Origin: Gammaproteobacteria bacterium
Lineage (GTDB): Bacteria > Pseudomonadota > Gammaproteobacteria > Immundisolibacterales > Immundisolibacteraceae
NCBI GenBank assembly: GCA_038113925.1
Contig: JAYNPV010000001.1
Location: 1 to 29,668, forward strand
Reading direction: 5' to 3'
DNA length: 29,668 nt
Shown in pieces: positions 3,779 through 24,832 of this stretch. The notes beneath the pieces are model-generated. The model did no database searches and was not told the origin of the DNA. It saw nothing but the letters and a program-made list of their open reading frames with translations. Numbering within the stretch: the first letter of the stretch is position 1; the number at the start of each line of letters is the position of its first letter. Position numbers and translations under genes: made by a program.

Positions 3779-4071
3779 TGCATCGGGCTCCCCTGGTCAG
3801 ACTGGGCACCGGGCAGTTCATTGAGCAGCGCCAGGGTCGCCTCCGCCGCAGCCTGGTCGAGTATCTGCAGGGCGAATCCGGTATGGGCGATGATGTAATC
3901 GCCAGGCAGCGCCTCCGGGGTATAGGCCAGGCATATTTTCTTGATGACACTGCCAAATTTCACCCTGGCGAATTTCATGGTTCCGTTGGCCAGATCAATC
4001 GCAGGCTCATTATCCCGGTCATCGGTAGCGCCAATCAGTTCAATGATCTCTCCCGGCACAGCTAGGCACAC
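3775..4071 (-). CDS. hypC: Hydrogenase assembly chaperone HypC
   Basis: N-terminal MCLAVPG (GTG start) and GDYIIAHTGFA, located between hypF and hypD. Confidence 0.93.
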   Translation of the reverse strand: MCLAVPGEIIELIGATDDRDNEPAIDLANGTMKFARVKFGSVIKKICLAYTPEALPGDYIIAHTGFALQILDQAAAEATLALLNELPGAQSDQGSPMQ

Positions 4072-20763: not shown

Positions 20764-21669
20764 ATGATCGCGGGTGGAGATCGTCCCGCTGACACCGATC
20801 AGGGCGACCGGCAACCCTGGGAAATACATCTAACCGTTGATGCGGCCGCGGATGCGGCCACTCTACTGGCAAGCGCGAGCGGGCTGACAAAAACACGGGT
20901 CAAGCAGGTGATGCAGCGGGGCGCGGTCTGGTGGCAGCAGGGTGACCAGGTGCGTCGGCTGAGGCGTGCCAAACGCCAGGTAGCCGCCGGTGAGCAGCTC
21001 CATCTTTATTACGATGCCCGGGTGCTGGCGATGGAGCCACAGGCAGCGATACTGATCGCCGATGAGGGCAGCTACAGCGTCTGGAACAAGCCAGCCGGGA
21101 TGCTCTCGCAGGGCTCCAAATGGGGGGATTACGCTACCCTGACCCGCTACGCGGAGCAGCATTTGACCCCTGAGCGCAACGCCTTTCTGGTGCATCGGCT
21201 CGATCGCGACGCCCGCGGGTTAATGGTCGTCGCTCATACCAAAAGCAGTGCCCGTGAACTGAGCCGCCAGTTTCAACATCGAGAGGTGACCAAAATTTAC
21301 CGCGCCCAGGTAAGCGGTCGAGTACCCGAAAATTCTCAATCGATCGAGCTGACCGAGCCGCTGGATGGCAAACCGGCCCAGAGTCAGGTCACCTTGCTTG
21401 GTTATGACCAAACCCTGGATTGTTCCTGGGTAAGCGTCAACATTCTTACCGGCAGAAAACACCAGGTGCGCCGCCACCTGGCAGGGGCCGGTTGGCCGAT
21501 TATGGGGGACCGCCGTTACGGCGAGAGCCGGCCAGAACAAACGGCCGGGGTCGACAGCGAACCGCCGGGGTTGCAACTGGTGGCCGCCGAGCTAACCCTC
21601 ACCGATCCGCAGAGCGCAGAACTGCGTCATTATCAATTACCTGCCGATCGGGTTTTTCACACTAAATGA
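20764..21669 (+). CDS. RluA-family RNA pseudouridine synthase
   Basis: VWNKPAGMLSQ, catalytic HRLDRDARG, KIYRA, TGRKHQVRRHL and PIMGDRRYG. Confidence 0.92.
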   Translation: MIAGGDRPADTDQGDRQPWEIHLTVDAAADAATLLASASGLTKTRVKQVMQRGAVWWQQGDQVRRLRRAKRQVAAGEQLHLYYDARVLAMEPQAAILIADEGSYSVWNKPAGMLSQGSKWGDYATLTRYAEQHLTPERNAFLVHRLDRDARGLMVVAHTKSSARELSRQFQHREVTKIYRAQVSGRVPENSQSIELTEPLDGKPAQSQVTLLGYDQTLDCSWVSVNILTGRKHQVRRHLAGAGWPIMGDRRYGESRPEQTAGVDSEPPGLQLVAAELTLTDPQSAELRHYQLPADRVFHTK

Positions 21670-21676
21670 AGCGGAC

Positions 21677-21706
21677 AAAAAAAAGCGCTACTTTTGGTAG
21701 CGCTTT
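21677..21706 (-). terminator. Intrinsic terminator acting on the minus strand
   Basis: Perfect 10-bp stem (21682-21691 / 21697-21706) with a 5-nt loop. The A8 run at 21677-21684 reads as a U8 tail only on the minus strand. Confidence 0.75.
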
Positions 21707-21821
21707 GGAGAAGAGCGTTGTGCTCTTAGGGGGGAGGATTTCGGGACCCATACAAACTCCGCTTTTGGCATCGGTTGTAGGGTTAACAAGCACTCATAAA
21801 TTTGGTGATTGCTTAAAGTTG
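21677..21821 (-). ncRNA. Candidate sigma54-dependent small regulatory RNA (about 145 nt)
   Basis: Bounded by a -24/-12 promoter and a minus-strand terminator, with no substantial ORF between them. Contains internal hairpins (21788-21814, 21711-21727) and an unpaired anti-SD tract AAUCCUCCCCCCU. Confidence 0.5.
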
Positions 21822-21848: not shown

Positions 21849-22085
21849 CTTTTTAATCAAAGCCCAACTCGGTAGAGTTAGTTGCTTTAACGACCTTGTT
21901 TACAGGCTCTTTAGGGCTAAATTGAAAATAAATCGCCGGGAGCAGCCTGGGATATTCCGGGGGGTATCGGCAGGCCGTCGTCGTTTTTACGGCGCAGTGC
22001 CAAGCGCTCTGTCAACGTTTTGGCGTGGAGTCAGCTGAGCCGGTTGTTGGGAAACCGATTGATTATCCTTTGTTCGATGACACTT

Positions 22086-22206
22086 TCCCTTCGGCTCCGC
22101 TCCCTTCGGCTCCGCTCCCTTCGGCTCCGCTCCCTTCGGCTCCGCTCAGGGTGCGCCGAGGGTAGACACCGACCGTACTCGTTCCCTGAGCGGAGCCGAA
22201 GGGAGC
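22086..22206. repeat. REP-like element A: four tandem 15-mers plus an inverted-repeat doublet
   Basis: TCCCTTCGGCTCCGC x4 (22086-22145). Perfect 23-bp inverted repeat at 22129-22151 / 22184-22206 around a 32-nt spacer. Confidence 0.92.
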
Positions 22207-22333
22207 GATTCGGGAAATTGAGACCCAATCAAATGCGTCGATATATTCGATGTTTTTCGACATATTGTGTTGATCTGTTGATCGCTTCGACATAACCTTG
22301 GGATATGACCAAAAAATAGCCAATAATCAACAT

Positions 22334-23455
22334 ATGTCTTTTCAACCGGAACAGCCCTTCAACGATCTGCCGGATCTGCCCCCCGCGGCAGAACTGGAAA
22401 CCATGGCTGTTTTAAAGCGTTGTATTCGCGCACGAGCCGCCCTGGGCGAACTGAAACAGGCAGGCGCACTGATCCCCAATCCCTCGGTGCTGATCAATAC
22501 CCTGCCACTGCTTGAGGCGCGCGACAGTACCGAAATCGAGAATATCGTCACCACCTCCGATCGCTTGTTCCGTTTTGCTGCCAGCGAACAGCGCGGTGAT
22601 CCGGCCACCAGAGAGGCGCTGCGCTACCGCAAGGCACTGGTCGAGGGCTTTGCCAGCCTGGAAAGTCGTCCGCTTTGCACCGCAACGGCAGTGCGCATCT
22701 GCCAGATCATCAAGGATGCGCCGCTGGATGTGCGCAAAGTACCCGGTACCAGGTTGGCCAATGCCACCAGTGGCGAGGTGATCTATACCCCGCCGGAAGG
22801 GGAGGCTCTGTTGCGCGACAAGTTGGCCAACTGGGAACGGTTTATTCATCAACAGGATGCGCTGGATCCTCTGGTGCGTCTTGCGGTCGCGCACTACCAG
22901 TTTGAGGCGATTCACCCCTTTACCGATGGTAACGGCCGTACCGGACGGGTGCTGAACTCCTTGTTCCTGATTGACACCGGTCTGCTCACCTTGCCCATCC
23001 TCTACCTGAGCCGCTACATGCTGCGGCATCGCGCTGATTACTATCGGCTATTGCTTGGCGTTACCCGCGAACAGGCGTGGGAAGCCTGGCTGCTGTTCAT
23101 GCTCGAAGGCATCGAAGAAACCGCCTTGTGGACCTTGAACAAGATCACGGCGGTACGTGAGCTGATGACGCACACCATTGAATATGTGCAAAGTGCACTA
23201 CCGATGATCTACAGTCGCGAATTGCTGGATTTGATTTTTGAACAACCCTATTGCCGAATCGCCAACCTGGTGAGCGCAGGTATCGCCCAACGCCAGACGG
23301 CCTCCGAGTACCTGAAGAAACTGGAATCCATTGGGGTGTTGCGCCAGGAACAGGTGGGGCGGGAAAAGCTGTTTATCCATTCACACCTGATGCACCTACT
23401 CACTGAAGAGAGCAATACCTTTACGCCTTACCCGCGGACACGGGAGGAATCGTAA
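22334..23455 (+). CDS. Fic-domain protein, class II (N-terminal inhibitory helix), with a C-terminal HTH-like region (SoFic-like architecture)
   Basis: Canonical HPFTDGNGRTGR motif and inhibitory (S/T)xxxE(G/N) motif STEIEN. C-terminal RQTASEYLKKLESIGVL. ATG at 22334 preferred over 22298. Confidence 0.92.
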   Translation: MSFQPEQPFNDLPDLPPAAELETMAVLKRCIRARAALGELKQAGALIPNPSVLINTLPLLEARDSTEIENIVTTSDRLFRFAASEQRGDPATREALRYRKALVEGFASLESRPLCTATAVRICQIIKDAPLDVRKVPGTRLANATSGEVIYTPPEGEALLRDKLANWERFIHQQDALDPLVRLAVAHYQFEAIHPFTDGNGRTGRVLNSLFLIDTGLLTLPILYLSRYMLRHRADYYRLLLGVTREQAWEAWLLFMLEGIEETALWTLNKITAVRELMTHTIEYVQSALPMIYSRELLDLIFEQPYCRIANLVSAGIAQRQTASEYLKKLESIGVLRQEQVGREKLFIHSHLMHLLTEESNTFTPYPRTREES

Positions 23456-23481
23456 GCAATGTTGCTTTAATGCCAACTTCC

Positions 23482-23572
23482 TTCCCTTCGACTTCGCTCC
23501 CTTCGGCTCCGCTCAGGGTGCGCCGAGGGTAGGCACCGACCGTACTCGTTCCCTGAGCGAAGTCGAAGGGAA
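23482..23572. repeat. REP-like element B
   Basis: 23498-23571 matches 22131-22204 at 71 of 74 positions. Preceded by a 15-nt variant copy (23483-23497); right arm at 23551-23572. Confidence 0.92.
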
Positions 23573-23593
23573 CTAAAGCGAAAGGAGTTGATA

Positions 23594-24028
23594 ATGCCGT
23601 TCATGTACATCCTAAAATGCTCTGATGGCAGCTATTACACCGGCAGCACCTGGAACCTGGAAAAACGCTTTGCCGAACATCAGGCGGGTCTTGGTGCCAA
23701 CCACACCCGCAAACAGCTACCACTAGAGCTCGTATATTTTGAGGAATGCGAACGGGTAGAGGATGCCTATTTCCGTGAGAAGCAAATTCAGGGCTGGAGC
23801 AGAAAGAAAAAGGAAGCGCTGATGGCAGGGGAAACCAACGCCTTGCATCAATTGGCAGCATGTCGAAATGAGACCCATCATTCTGGCTTCGGCTCCGCTG
23901 GCTTCGGCTCCGCTCAGCCAACGTATTTCGACTCCGCTCCCTTCGACTCCGCTCAGGGTGCGCCAGCGGATAGCGAAAACCGTTCCCTGAGCGAAGCCGA
24001 AGGGAACGATCCGGCAGCAAAGAAATGA
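23594..24028 (+). CDS. Stand-alone GIY-YIG nuclease family protein with a repeat-encoded C-terminal tail
   Basis: MYILKCSDGSYYTGST..LEKRFAEH...YFEE...AYFREKQIQGWSRKKKEAL, including the conserved Tyr/Gly, Arg and Glu. RBS AAGGAG at 23582-23587. Confidence 0.9.
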   Translation: MPFMYILKCSDGSYYTGSTWNLEKRFAEHQAGLGANHTRKQLPLELVYFEECERVEDAYFREKQIQGWSRKKKEALMAGETNALHQLAACRNETHHSGFGSAGFGSAQPTYFDSAPFDSAQGAPADSENRSLSEAEGNDPAAKK

Positions 24029-24085
24029 GCCATAGCCCATCGGCTGAGCATATCAGTACCCCGTAGGCTGAGCGGAGTCGAAGCC
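23885..24085. repeat. REP-like cluster C: nested inner and outer doublets overlapping two gene 3' ends
   Basis: Outer arms 23900-23923 / 24062-24085 (22/24 complementary; the right arm starts cGTAG). Inner arms 23939-23958 / 23985-24004. Each left arm is preceded by a 15-nt partial copy. Confidence 0.9.
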
Positions 24086-24832
24086 CGCCGGTTTGATCGC
24101 CCGGATATGACGCAGCTGCCAGGGTAGGTTGATGCCACCCTGGTCATCGGTCTCGATGCAAAGATAGGCAGCGAGCTGATCAAAAAACTCCCGCTGCGCC
24201 AGCGGTTGCAGGCCAAACTGGTCGCTGCAGAAGCTCACCAATGCCTGCTCGCTGGCAAAGTGCCACGGGTAGTGCCGCTCCTGAACGCTGTCGATGACAA
24301 AGCCTGCCTGTTGCAGCTGCTGCGTGGCGAGGTCGTCAAGATAATAGCCGTGGTGGCCCTGCGGGTTATGGGTGTCGACAAAGCCGTCCAGAAAAGCCGC
24401 TACCGGTGAGTTGGCGGCGACTTCAGCCAGTAGCAGGGTTCCGCCGGGTAGCAGGCAGCGCCAGGCTTCGCTAAAAAAATGGCGTTTATCTTCTACGTGA
24501 TGAACGCCGGCGACCGAGATAATCTGGTGAGCACACTGGTCAATCACCGGCCAGTTATCGCCATCGGCACGGGCATGGGGGCATATTTTTTCCCCGCTGC
24601 TAAAGCCAGCGGCGCACTCCAGCCGGGCCACCCGGCAGTCTGGGGGTAAAAACCGGCTCAGCATGCCGCCGCCGGCGGGTACATCCAGAATCAGCTGGCC
24701 GGCCTCGGGCCGGGCCGATGCGACTGCGGCTGCAAACTCTTCTGCCCGGGCATCCGGATAATTGTTCAGTGCGCGCAGATAACGGGCACCCCGCTCAGCA
24801 AAAATATCCTGATAACGGCCGACAGAAGCCAC
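24053..24832 (-). CDS. Class I SAM-dependent methyltransferase
   Basis: Motif I ILDVPAGGG, SVAGVHHV, and a motif III-like EAWRCLLPGGTLLLAE. Starts 4 nt after the argH stop. Confidence 0.8.
   Translation of the reverse strand: MASVGRYQDIFAERGARYLRALNNYPDARAEEFAAAVASARPEAGQLILDVPAGGGMLSRFLPPDCRVARLECAAGFSSGEKICPHARADGDNWPVIDQCAHQIISVAGVHHVEDKRHFFSEAWRCLLPGGTLLLAEVAANSPVAAFLDGFVDTHNPQGHHGYYLDDLATQQLQQAGFVIDSVQERHYPWHFASEQALVSFCSDQFGLQPLAQREFFDQLAAYLCIETDDQGGINLPWQLRHIRAIKPAGFDSAQPTGY

Follow-up and report, generated by a model that had tools for sequence, protein, structure and literature searches.

A stretch of 29,668 nucleotides from a member of the Immundisolibacteraceae (Gammaproteobacteria bacterium, assembly GCA_038113925.1, contig JAYNPV010000001.1, positions 1 to 29,668; hereafter the window) carries a small stand-alone GIY-YIG nuclease gene and a SoFic-type Fic gene, which lie side by side between an rluA-like pseudouridine synthase gene and a methyltransferase gene and are surrounded by inverted copies of a short hairpin repeat. 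Profile searches placed the nuclease gene at 23594-24028 and the Fic gene at 22334-23455, in agreement with an earlier reading of the bare sequence (the original prediction), which had further proposed that the nuclease takes the place of a transposase in a selfish element resembling repetitive extragenic palindromes (REPs). Comparison with related loci showed that hairpins and GIY-YIG gene form a family-wide pair in fixed orientation, beyond local coincidence. We consider it probable, though well short of certain, that the block is a nuclease/hairpin module like that of the Ssn nucleases, acquired horizontally together with the SoFic gene as an insert of about 2.0-2.2 kb between the rluA-like and methyltransferase genes. 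Units on the plus strand are called F and those on the minus strand R; the features are as follows.

22086-22135, minus strand: stutter of truncated units (loops at 22091, 22106 and 22121) entering the first complete R hairpin
22128-22155 (minus) and 22180-22207 (plus): doublet A, R and F
22180-22207, plus strand: F hairpin of doublet A, CGTTCCCT-GAGCGGAGCCGA-AGGGAGCG
22208-22333, plus strand: Fic leader, with a promoter-like site at 22218-22247 and TCGACAT/ATGTCGA repeats
22334-23455, plus strand: SoFic-type Fic protein adenylyltransferase, domains Fic_N, Fic and SoFic-like_C
23483-23522, minus strand: truncated unit and R hairpin of doublet A'
23495-23522 (minus) and 23547-23574 (plus): doublet A', R and F
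23594-24028, plus strand: GIY-YIG open reading frame (ORF), profile match PF01541
23594-23878, plus strand: GIY-YIG nuclease domain, residues 1-95, PF01541, E 1.3e-17
23879-24028, plus strand: ORF tail reading through hairpins (..GFGSAQPT..PFDSAQG..RSLSEAEGN..)
23896-23923 (minus) and 24062-24089 (plus): outer doublet, R and F
23935-23962 (minus) and 23981-24008 (plus): doublet B, R and F, within a block at 23925-24008 that includes one truncated unit
22091, 22106, 22121, 23488 and 23928, minus strand: five truncated 15-nt R units

Hairpin repeats, nuclease gene and inserted block

The loop core of the repeat, GAGCGNAGNCGA, occurs 13 times within 22086-24089, four times on the plus and nine times on the minus strand, and a looser 16-nt pattern, CTGAGCGRAGYCGAAG, searched with at most two mismatches, gave 12 matches, all inside 22089-24083, against a chance expectation of 0.11. 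Neither pattern had a further match in the rest of the window, which confirms the four inverted-repeat doublets that the original prediction had seen around the two genes and nowhere else in the window. Eight hairpins are complete (four R and four F) and pair into these doublets. The remaining 2.63-Mb draft assembly of 304 contigs, where a genome-wide count had been suggested, held a single match with one mismatch, on contig C125, a lower bound since draft assemblies often leave repeats unassembled.

The 28-nt unit folds on itself, for example as CGTTCCCT-GAGCGAAGCCGA-AGGGAACG: a stem of 5-8 bp closes a 12-nt loop that does not vary, GAGCGNAGYCGA, and CG precedes it as a tag on the 5' side. 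Among 392 units drawn from the window and 80 related loci (81 loci in all), the loop was invariant apart from positions 6 and 9, and 188 distinct stem sequences were found, with stem pairs 3 and 4 alternating between G-C, C-G and A-T. Uninterrupted pairing averaged 5.2 bp and fell to 2.5 bp once the 3' partners were swapped among units, and the two stem types of the window, CCCT/AGGG and GGCT/AGCC, are a double compensatory change of each other. By this comparative evidence, compensatory changes in the stem establish the hairpin structure. Whole doublets can fold as well, into long hairpins with energies of -21 to -38 kcal/mol (z-scores -3 to -9). Since the partners in a doublet differ in stem sequence in many relatives, it is nevertheless the small hairpin that is the conserved structure. 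The functional unit thus appears to be this small hairpin with its conserved loop, in place of the 20-nt arm of a palindrome that had been proposed.

Flanking the stem on its 5' side, C at position -8 was conserved in 68% and G at -7 in 92% of the units, while their would-be pairing partners were not conserved, so that the unit has polarity and a 5' tag; the position frequencies give this tag as CGNT at -8 to -5, that is C(-8), G(-7), N and T(-5). The letters GTAG at 24063-24066, taken in the original prediction for the classic REP tag, are present, but they are the tag CGT running into a stem that starts with AGG, and among all units GTAG arises only when N is T and the stem begins with A.

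Doublets A and A', which lie on either side of the Fic gene, are 94% identical across 89 nt, spacer included, and this identity points to a recent duplication of the whole doublet around Fic. The period is 15 nt in all five truncated copies, which flank R units on one side only. This period equals the spacing between the GAGCG at the start of the loop and the GAGCG of the 3' stem flank AGGGAGCG; units with this flank have GAGCG twice, 15 nt apart, and are thus a ready substrate for slippage, so that the stutter would most simply have arisen by replication slippage between the two microhomologies, for which no enzyme is needed. In relatives, whole or partial units form long tandem arrays of as many as 15 copies, whose periods are 24, 21 and 39 nt (G103:C1:5584188-5584537; L032; L053; L012 5357-5480), and the 15-nt stutter of the window is one case of this general tendency to amplify.

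For the nuclease, PF01541 was the sole Pfam match (residues 2-73), and the conserved part of the protein ends near residue 95. The catalytic residues Y5, Y15, G17, R25, H29 and E62 are present and did not vary when the protein was aligned with NTS-flanked, UPF0213 and sister-clade proteins, which are described below. Upstream, the F hairpin of doublet A' stops 20 nt before the start codon, with a ribosome-binding site (AAAGGAG) in between, and downstream the R hairpin at 23896-23923, with a GGCT/AGCC stem, begins 18 nt past the domain and is the conserved downstream partner of the gene. The tail of the 144-residue ORF is probably not a functional domain: the tails of homologues span from 0 to about 120 residues, some homologues stop straight after the domain, and more than 100 tails encode hairpins as GFDSAQPT...RSLSGVEGN. 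For genome annotation, the hairpins explain the variable-length, repeat-encoded tails of such GIY-YIG ORFs as well as the rewritten 3' ends of neighbouring genes. Searches of NCBIfam and PHROGs gave no informative name for the nuclease, an NCBIfam intron endonuclease model matched it weakly (17.9 bits, with a cut-off of 56), and PADLOC did not list it as a defence protein.

The site of the block was compared with that of a genome of the same genus, G017, and the following features describe the insertion.

20764-21669, plus strand: rluA-like pseudouridine synthase gene, resident, left flank
21856-24089: segment inserted relative to G017, right end exact at 24089/24090, left end within 21856-22085
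24053-24832, minus strand: resident SAM-dependent methyltransferase gene, 3' end rewritten by the insert
24062-24089, plus strand: terminal F hairpin with GGCT/AGCC stem, encoding on the minus strand the last 11 methyltransferase codons and the stop

In G017 rluA, the methyltransferase gene and argH are present and the hairpins, Fic and GIY-YIG gene are absent, so that the empty rluA/methyltransferase site which the original prediction had suggested looking for does exist; G019 and G015 also lack the methyltransferase. Homology to G017 at the DNA level resumes exactly at 24090, and the C-terminus of the methyltransferase, which ends in ..IRAIKPV in G017, reads ..IRAIKP-AGFDSAQPTGY in the window, the 11 hairpin-encoded residues AGFDSAQPTGY replacing the single V of the orthologue. 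The left border could only be bracketed within 21856-22085, the intergenic DNA of relatives having diverged. GC content is 0.50-0.55 in the two cargo genes and close to 0.60 in the DNA on either side. None of the window's 22 large ORFs encodes an integrase or transposase (they are housekeeping, Fic or GIY-YIG genes), so the block lacks the tyrosine-recombinase integrase that accompanies integron gene cassettes (attC hairpins) and their attI site.

Nuclease, hairpin and Fic gene across bacteria

A database search returned more than 5,600 relatives of the nuclease, at 60-85% identity and from many phyla, the best 120 of which were 67-87% identical to it and 95-218 residues long. We examined 80 genomic loci with 59-82% identical genes from Gamma-, Beta- and Deltaproteobacteria, Cyanobacteria, Bacteroidota, Spirochaetes and others. 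A hairpin unit lay within 500 nt of the gene in 74 of the 80 loci, and on both sides of it in 51; unit density was 4.09 per kb near the gene and 0.072 per kb beyond 1.5 kb, a 57-fold local enrichment. The nearest upstream unit was F in 51 of 60 loci, 25-45 nt ahead of the start codon, and the nearest downstream unit was R in 52 of 65, mostly at +16/+17 after the domain. The pairing of nuclease and repeat that had been supposed from the window alone, and the enrichment of flanking repeats at GIY-YIG homologues by which it was to be judged, are therefore borne out.

The type of loop also changes with the nuclease. The 12-nt loop was carried by 77 of 83 relatives at an identity of at least 60%, among them all of three further close relatives. 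In a sister clade with 45-53% identity, an 11-nt loop, GAGCNTGTCGA, was found in the same geometry at 13 of 16 loci, and 12-nt units were near only two of these 16. These counts, in which related genomes share labels and which are not a formal test of co-evolution, show by sequence comparison that loop type tracks nuclease clade, as a cognate enzyme/site pair predicts. Sister-clade loci with the 11-nt loop GAGCYTGTCGA include L108 (G019:C324, 400-660), L125 and L148-L162, and the sister-clade hairpins, when translated, give common FDKLR / PELVEG-type tails.

Genomes carrying the clade hold 4-112 units each, compared with 0-2 for a reversed-pattern control, and the units are dispersed along the chromosome, where R-F doublets with a distance of 37-43 nt and tandem arrays with a 24-nt period are frequent. 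One genome, G126, had 136 units of the 12-nt-loop hairpin and no gene of the cognate clade. Elsewhere the cassette of gene and hairpins separates hsdM from hsdS in type I restriction systems (L016, L024, L045) or parE from parC (L018, L019). Such intergenic spots within an operon recur, most of all in operons for type I restriction-modification, and may reflect a link to defence loci. Together with the SoFic neighbour in the window, the hsdM/hsdS sites suggest that the clade has a part in shuffling defence genes or in protecting them.

The Fic protein matched the NCBIfam equivalog model NF046030 over its full length and above the cut-off (612.9 bits, with a cut-off of 550) and was recognized by PADLOC as SoFic (E 1e-120), a single-gene anti-phage defence family. 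Its gene is bracketed by hairpins as F-gene-R, in the same order as the nuclease gene. A Fic gene was near none of the 80 related nuclease loci, and hairpins were near neither the closest database homologues (82% and 72% identity), in spite of their TCGACAT-rich leader, nor the Fic genes that family members carry, with approximately 65% identity. On these grounds a regular partnership of Fic with the nuclease was rejected; we take Fic to be a defence gene that came to lie between hairpins at this locus, and no regular passenger. The TCGACAT/ATGTCGA repeats of its leader (22228-22310 in the window) recur upstream of 72-82% identical Fic genes on unrelated contigs (L144, around 100-220; L146, around 3870-4000) and are a candidate operator of the SoFic gene family.

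Comparison with Ssn nucleases and other repeat systems

SsnA of Neisseria meningitidis is a GIY-YIG protein of 94 residues that binds and cuts only single-stranded DNA (ssDNA) beside the NTS hairpin, its locus has the order NTS-ssnA-NTS, and thousands of its homologues (cd10448) go with related SRM hairpins (Chenal et al. 2025, PMC11893778). That work presents bare GIY-YIG domains as sequence- and structure-specific cutters of ssDNA, each with its own hairpin, and remarks on a likeness to insertion sequences and to REPs with their REP-associated tyrosine transposases (RAYTs) (PMC11893778). Like SsnA, the window protein is a single GIY-YIG domain, about 95 residues long, in which the catalytic residues are the same, and the motif REKQIKGW(S/N)R is common to all hairpin-linked proteins and absent from YhbQ and YazA. 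The gene likewise lies between oriented hairpins as F-gene-R, an arrangement that we confirmed at the NTS-flanked loci L131 and L135; the hairpins have an unpaired 5' tag starting with CG; and in both systems other genes, too, are bracketed by the repeats, which occur as dispersed doublets as well. The hairpin itself is built differently, with an invariant 12-nt loop and a free stem, whereas in the NTS it is the 8-bp stem that is conserved and the loop has 4 nt. A nuclease/hairpin pairing of this kind has thus already been published, and the statement that no characterised system of the kind was known is outdated because of the Ssn nucleases and their NTS and SRM hairpins; the hairpin design found here differs from theirs, and so, it seems, does the enzyme branch.

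Exact NTS copies were located in 79 of 401 genomes of one order (the unpublished G465, which supports none of the conclusions, being among the 401), and the NTS-flanked GIY-YIG proteins of L131, L133 and L135 were used as proxies for the N. meningitidis SsnA. In these 79 genomes NTS motifs reached 213 copies per genome, and at L133 (G411:C1, 680-1395) the SsnA-type gene stood behind a tandem array of four NTS copies about 230 nt apart. The window protein was 36-44% identical to the proxies, with pairwise E values of 1e-16 to 3e-14. In a maximum-likelihood tree, which is unrooted and built from short proteins, the NTS group was split off as a clade of its own (100/99), with the window clade (97/95) on the UPF0213 side, outside a UPF0213 clade (97/98) of YazA, YhbQ and the genome's own paralogue on contig C196. 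The nearest solved structures were two UPF0213 proteins, 1zg2 (BH0048) and 1ywl (EF2693), with E values of 1.4e-12 and 1.9e-10, and against 1zg2 the window protein scored 51 bits, as opposed to 17.6 bits for an NTS-type protein. The SRM consensus (HGTCWY..YYVSBRH..WNVSBRG..RNCYNB) fits no hairpin unit of the window, where it had one stray match at 24080-24112, and its matches in the genome were at chance level (20, versus 28 in a shuffled genome); the same expression does recover the NTS copies around L131, L133 and L135. A plasmid search for SRM-flanked relatives found a Sphingomonas gene, 45% identical, that is flanked by the 12-nt-loop hairpin and by no SRM.

The UPF0213 proteins (YhbQ of Escherichia coli and Klebsiella, YazA of Bacillus subtilis) are the closest relatives with solved structures, and the paralogue on C196, which is UPF0213-like, is 42% identical to the window protein. 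Unlike the window gene, this paralogue has no hairpin units around it, and the YazA and YhbQ loci are in housekeeping contexts by annotation. Neither the GW(S/N)R motif nor the conserved stretch ..LHxLAxCRNE(T/S)H at the C-terminus is present in the UPF0213 proteins.

REPs and REPINs with their RAYTs (Nunvar 2010; Bertels & Rainey 2011) were compared by way of the discussion in PMC11893778 and PMC3733652. Both they and the repeats studied here are short hairpins, often in inverted doublets, with tens to hundreds of dispersed copies; in both cases a small nuclease gene, present in single copy, lies between them, and the proposed action is on single-stranded hairpins. In the fragmented source draft the inverted doublets are confined to a single locus; other genomes with the clade have 19-112 units and R-F doublets. 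Unlike REPs, the repeats of the window have no conserved GTAG tag. GIY-YIG enzymes form no covalent intermediates of the kind that HUH enzymes use to rejoin DNA. A search for Y1/HUH transposases (PF01797) gave no match in the source genome, which is 95.7% complete, no unit lay within 1 kb of any of 14 Y1 loci in three hairpin-rich genomes, and in G118, G090 and G126 neither a Y1 transposase gene nor another small GIY-YIG gene was flanked by a unit. A RAYT hypothesis was rejected on the basis of the missing PF01797 match and the unflanked Y1 genes, in keeping with the original prediction, which had seen no RAYT here.

The CGTC-tagged palindromic repeats, an 'orphan' REP superfamily that includes dRS3 of Neisseria (Di Nocera et al. 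2013, PMC3733652), resemble the hairpins studied here in having an unpaired 5' tag starting with CG, in occurring mostly as head-to-head dimers and in lacking a dedicated transposase (PMC3733652). They differ in their stems of 8-9 bp, loops of 4-5 nt and CCA-like tail (PMC3733652), compared with the variable 5-8 bp stem, invariant 12-nt loop and CGNT tag of the window unit. Beyond Chenal 2025 and Di Nocera 2013, we found no paper that describes the 12-nt-loop hairpin or the nuclease clade. A selfish-looking, horizontally spreading gene between host genes is also seen with free-standing GIY-YIG homing endonucleases such as the Seg proteins of phage T4 and I-TevI. These enzymes have a separate DNA-binding domain and cut double-stranded targets, whereas the window protein is a bare catalytic domain.

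Origin, possible action and rival explanations

As we picture it, the module would consist of the single-domain nuclease of about 95 residues and its cognate hairpin in the order F-gene-R, with both genes of the block so bracketed. By analogy with SsnA and the NTS, the nuclease would recognise the hairpin in DNA that is single-stranded during replication, transcription, conjugation or transformation, and would nick the loop-sense strand beside it. The F-gene-R order would then place one nick on each strand, in both cases beyond the limits of the bracketed gene. The outcome might be a selfish upkeep and spread of module and doublets through copying or recombination mediated by host repair, or else a restriction of incoming ssDNA at bracketed genes, as in Neisseria. 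We infer both the cutting of the hairpin and any mobilisation of Fic. A patchy distribution counts in favour of an acquired module: among 16 genomes of its own order the clade was found only in the source genome, next to one 47% identical gene of the sister clade.

Several observations weigh against this picture. The analogy with SsnA would cross a family border, the protein apparently lying outside the NTS-flanked SsnA clade and the hairpin being off the SRM consensus. GIY-YIG enzymes cut DNA but do not join it. In a sample of 151 genomes from one order, at least 10 units were present in 13 of 20 genomes with a close- or sister-clade gene, but also in 24 of 131 genomes without such a gene, these counts not being independent, and 61 and 74 units, respectively, were counted in the complete genomes G118 and G090, which have no gene of the clade. 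Hairpins can therefore persist, or spread, without a resident nuclease, and the claim of the original prediction that the nuclease mobilises the repeats gained no support. In contigs from four independent metagenome studies the arrangement of the window is kept, depth is even and strains differ by about 1%; no joint bypassing the insert was found, which is weak evidence on polymorphism, as such contigs break at every hairpin array and drop rare variants. The insert appears to be fixed in the sampled populations, and nothing shows current mobility at the locus.

A bolder form of the idea, which we hold to be rather doubtful, is that clade and 12-nt-loop hairpin together make up an autonomous, HUH-independent minimal mobile element, in which the nuclease would nick extruded hairpins and host repair would copy the bracketed segments, seeding doublets and at times bracketing or moving defence genes such as SoFic and parts of type I restriction operons; if true, REP/RAYT would have a second counterpart that works by a different mechanism. 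It is unlikely that the GIY-YIG protein itself substitutes for the transposase of an autonomous REP-like element, excising or copying bracketed segments, multiplying doublets and carrying passengers such as Fic. Such an activity would fit the absence of the whole block, hairpins included, from the G017 site, the exact end of the insert at a hairpin that rewrites the stop codon of its neighbour, the F-gene-R bracketing of Fic exactly as of the nuclease gene, the relatives at 60-85% identity across phyla and in unrelated intergenic spots (hsdM/hsdS, parE/parC), and the 19-112 dispersed units of clade genomes, mostly R-F doublets 37-43 nt apart. It sits poorly with the occurrence of Fic beside the clade at this locus and at none of the 80 others, its closest homologues being free of hairpins, with the abundant orphan hairpins of complete genomes that lack the gene, with the lack of insert polymorphism in the four metagenome studies and with the single locus in the source genome. 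GIY-YIG domains are not known to have any strand-transfer or ligation activity.

That many genomes have tens to more than 100 units and no clade gene, the units there adjoining no small GIY-YIG or Y1 transposase gene, could also mean that the hairpins are independent repeats, REP-like or used by the host as recombination or replication-pause sites, with the nuclease as a separate selfish hitchhiker for which they are a target or a neighbourhood. We find this distinctly unlikely, as the empty, hairpin-free site of G017 indicates that hairpins and genes arrived together here, as the F-gene-R geometry is strict and the downstream offset of +16 fixed across phyla, and as the loop type switches with the nuclease clade. 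A role at the RNA level, with the hairpins as terminators, mRNA stabilisers or an autoregulatory site and a regulatory link to the nuclease, seems highly improbable to us in spite of the very stable folds of the doublets (-21 to -38 kcal/mol) and the position of the hairpins exactly between genes. The units occur in both orientations with the same loop and the same 5' tag on the loop-sense strand, which fits recognition of a DNA strand; no T-run follows the hairpins, none of them was among the terminator-like sites found in the window, and a scan of the window gave no Rfam family at gathering score. Moreover, SsnA does not bind RNA (PMC11893778).

The nuclease/hairpin module that we favour would follow a principle opposite to that of the NTS, with an invariant loop and a free stem, in a separate and very widespread clade. 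If the enzyme reads the loop, it would represent a new specificity class for ssDNA tools, it would give UPF0213-like proteins a testable function, and the 12-nt loop, the 11-nt loop and the NTS would form a natural series of nuclease/site co-evolution.

Outside the block, a 65-nt element just 3' of rluA (21674-21740 in the window) contains the short hairpins GCGCTAC..GTAGCGC and AAGAGC..GCTCTT and, after them, GGGGGAGGA. Across the family its conservation is 80-87%, in a spacer that is otherwise not conserved, and in G017 it is duplicated; copies were located at L104 (1174-1241 and 1416-1480), L102 (2423-2488) and L103 (2443-2504). The element looks like a terminator or a small RNA.

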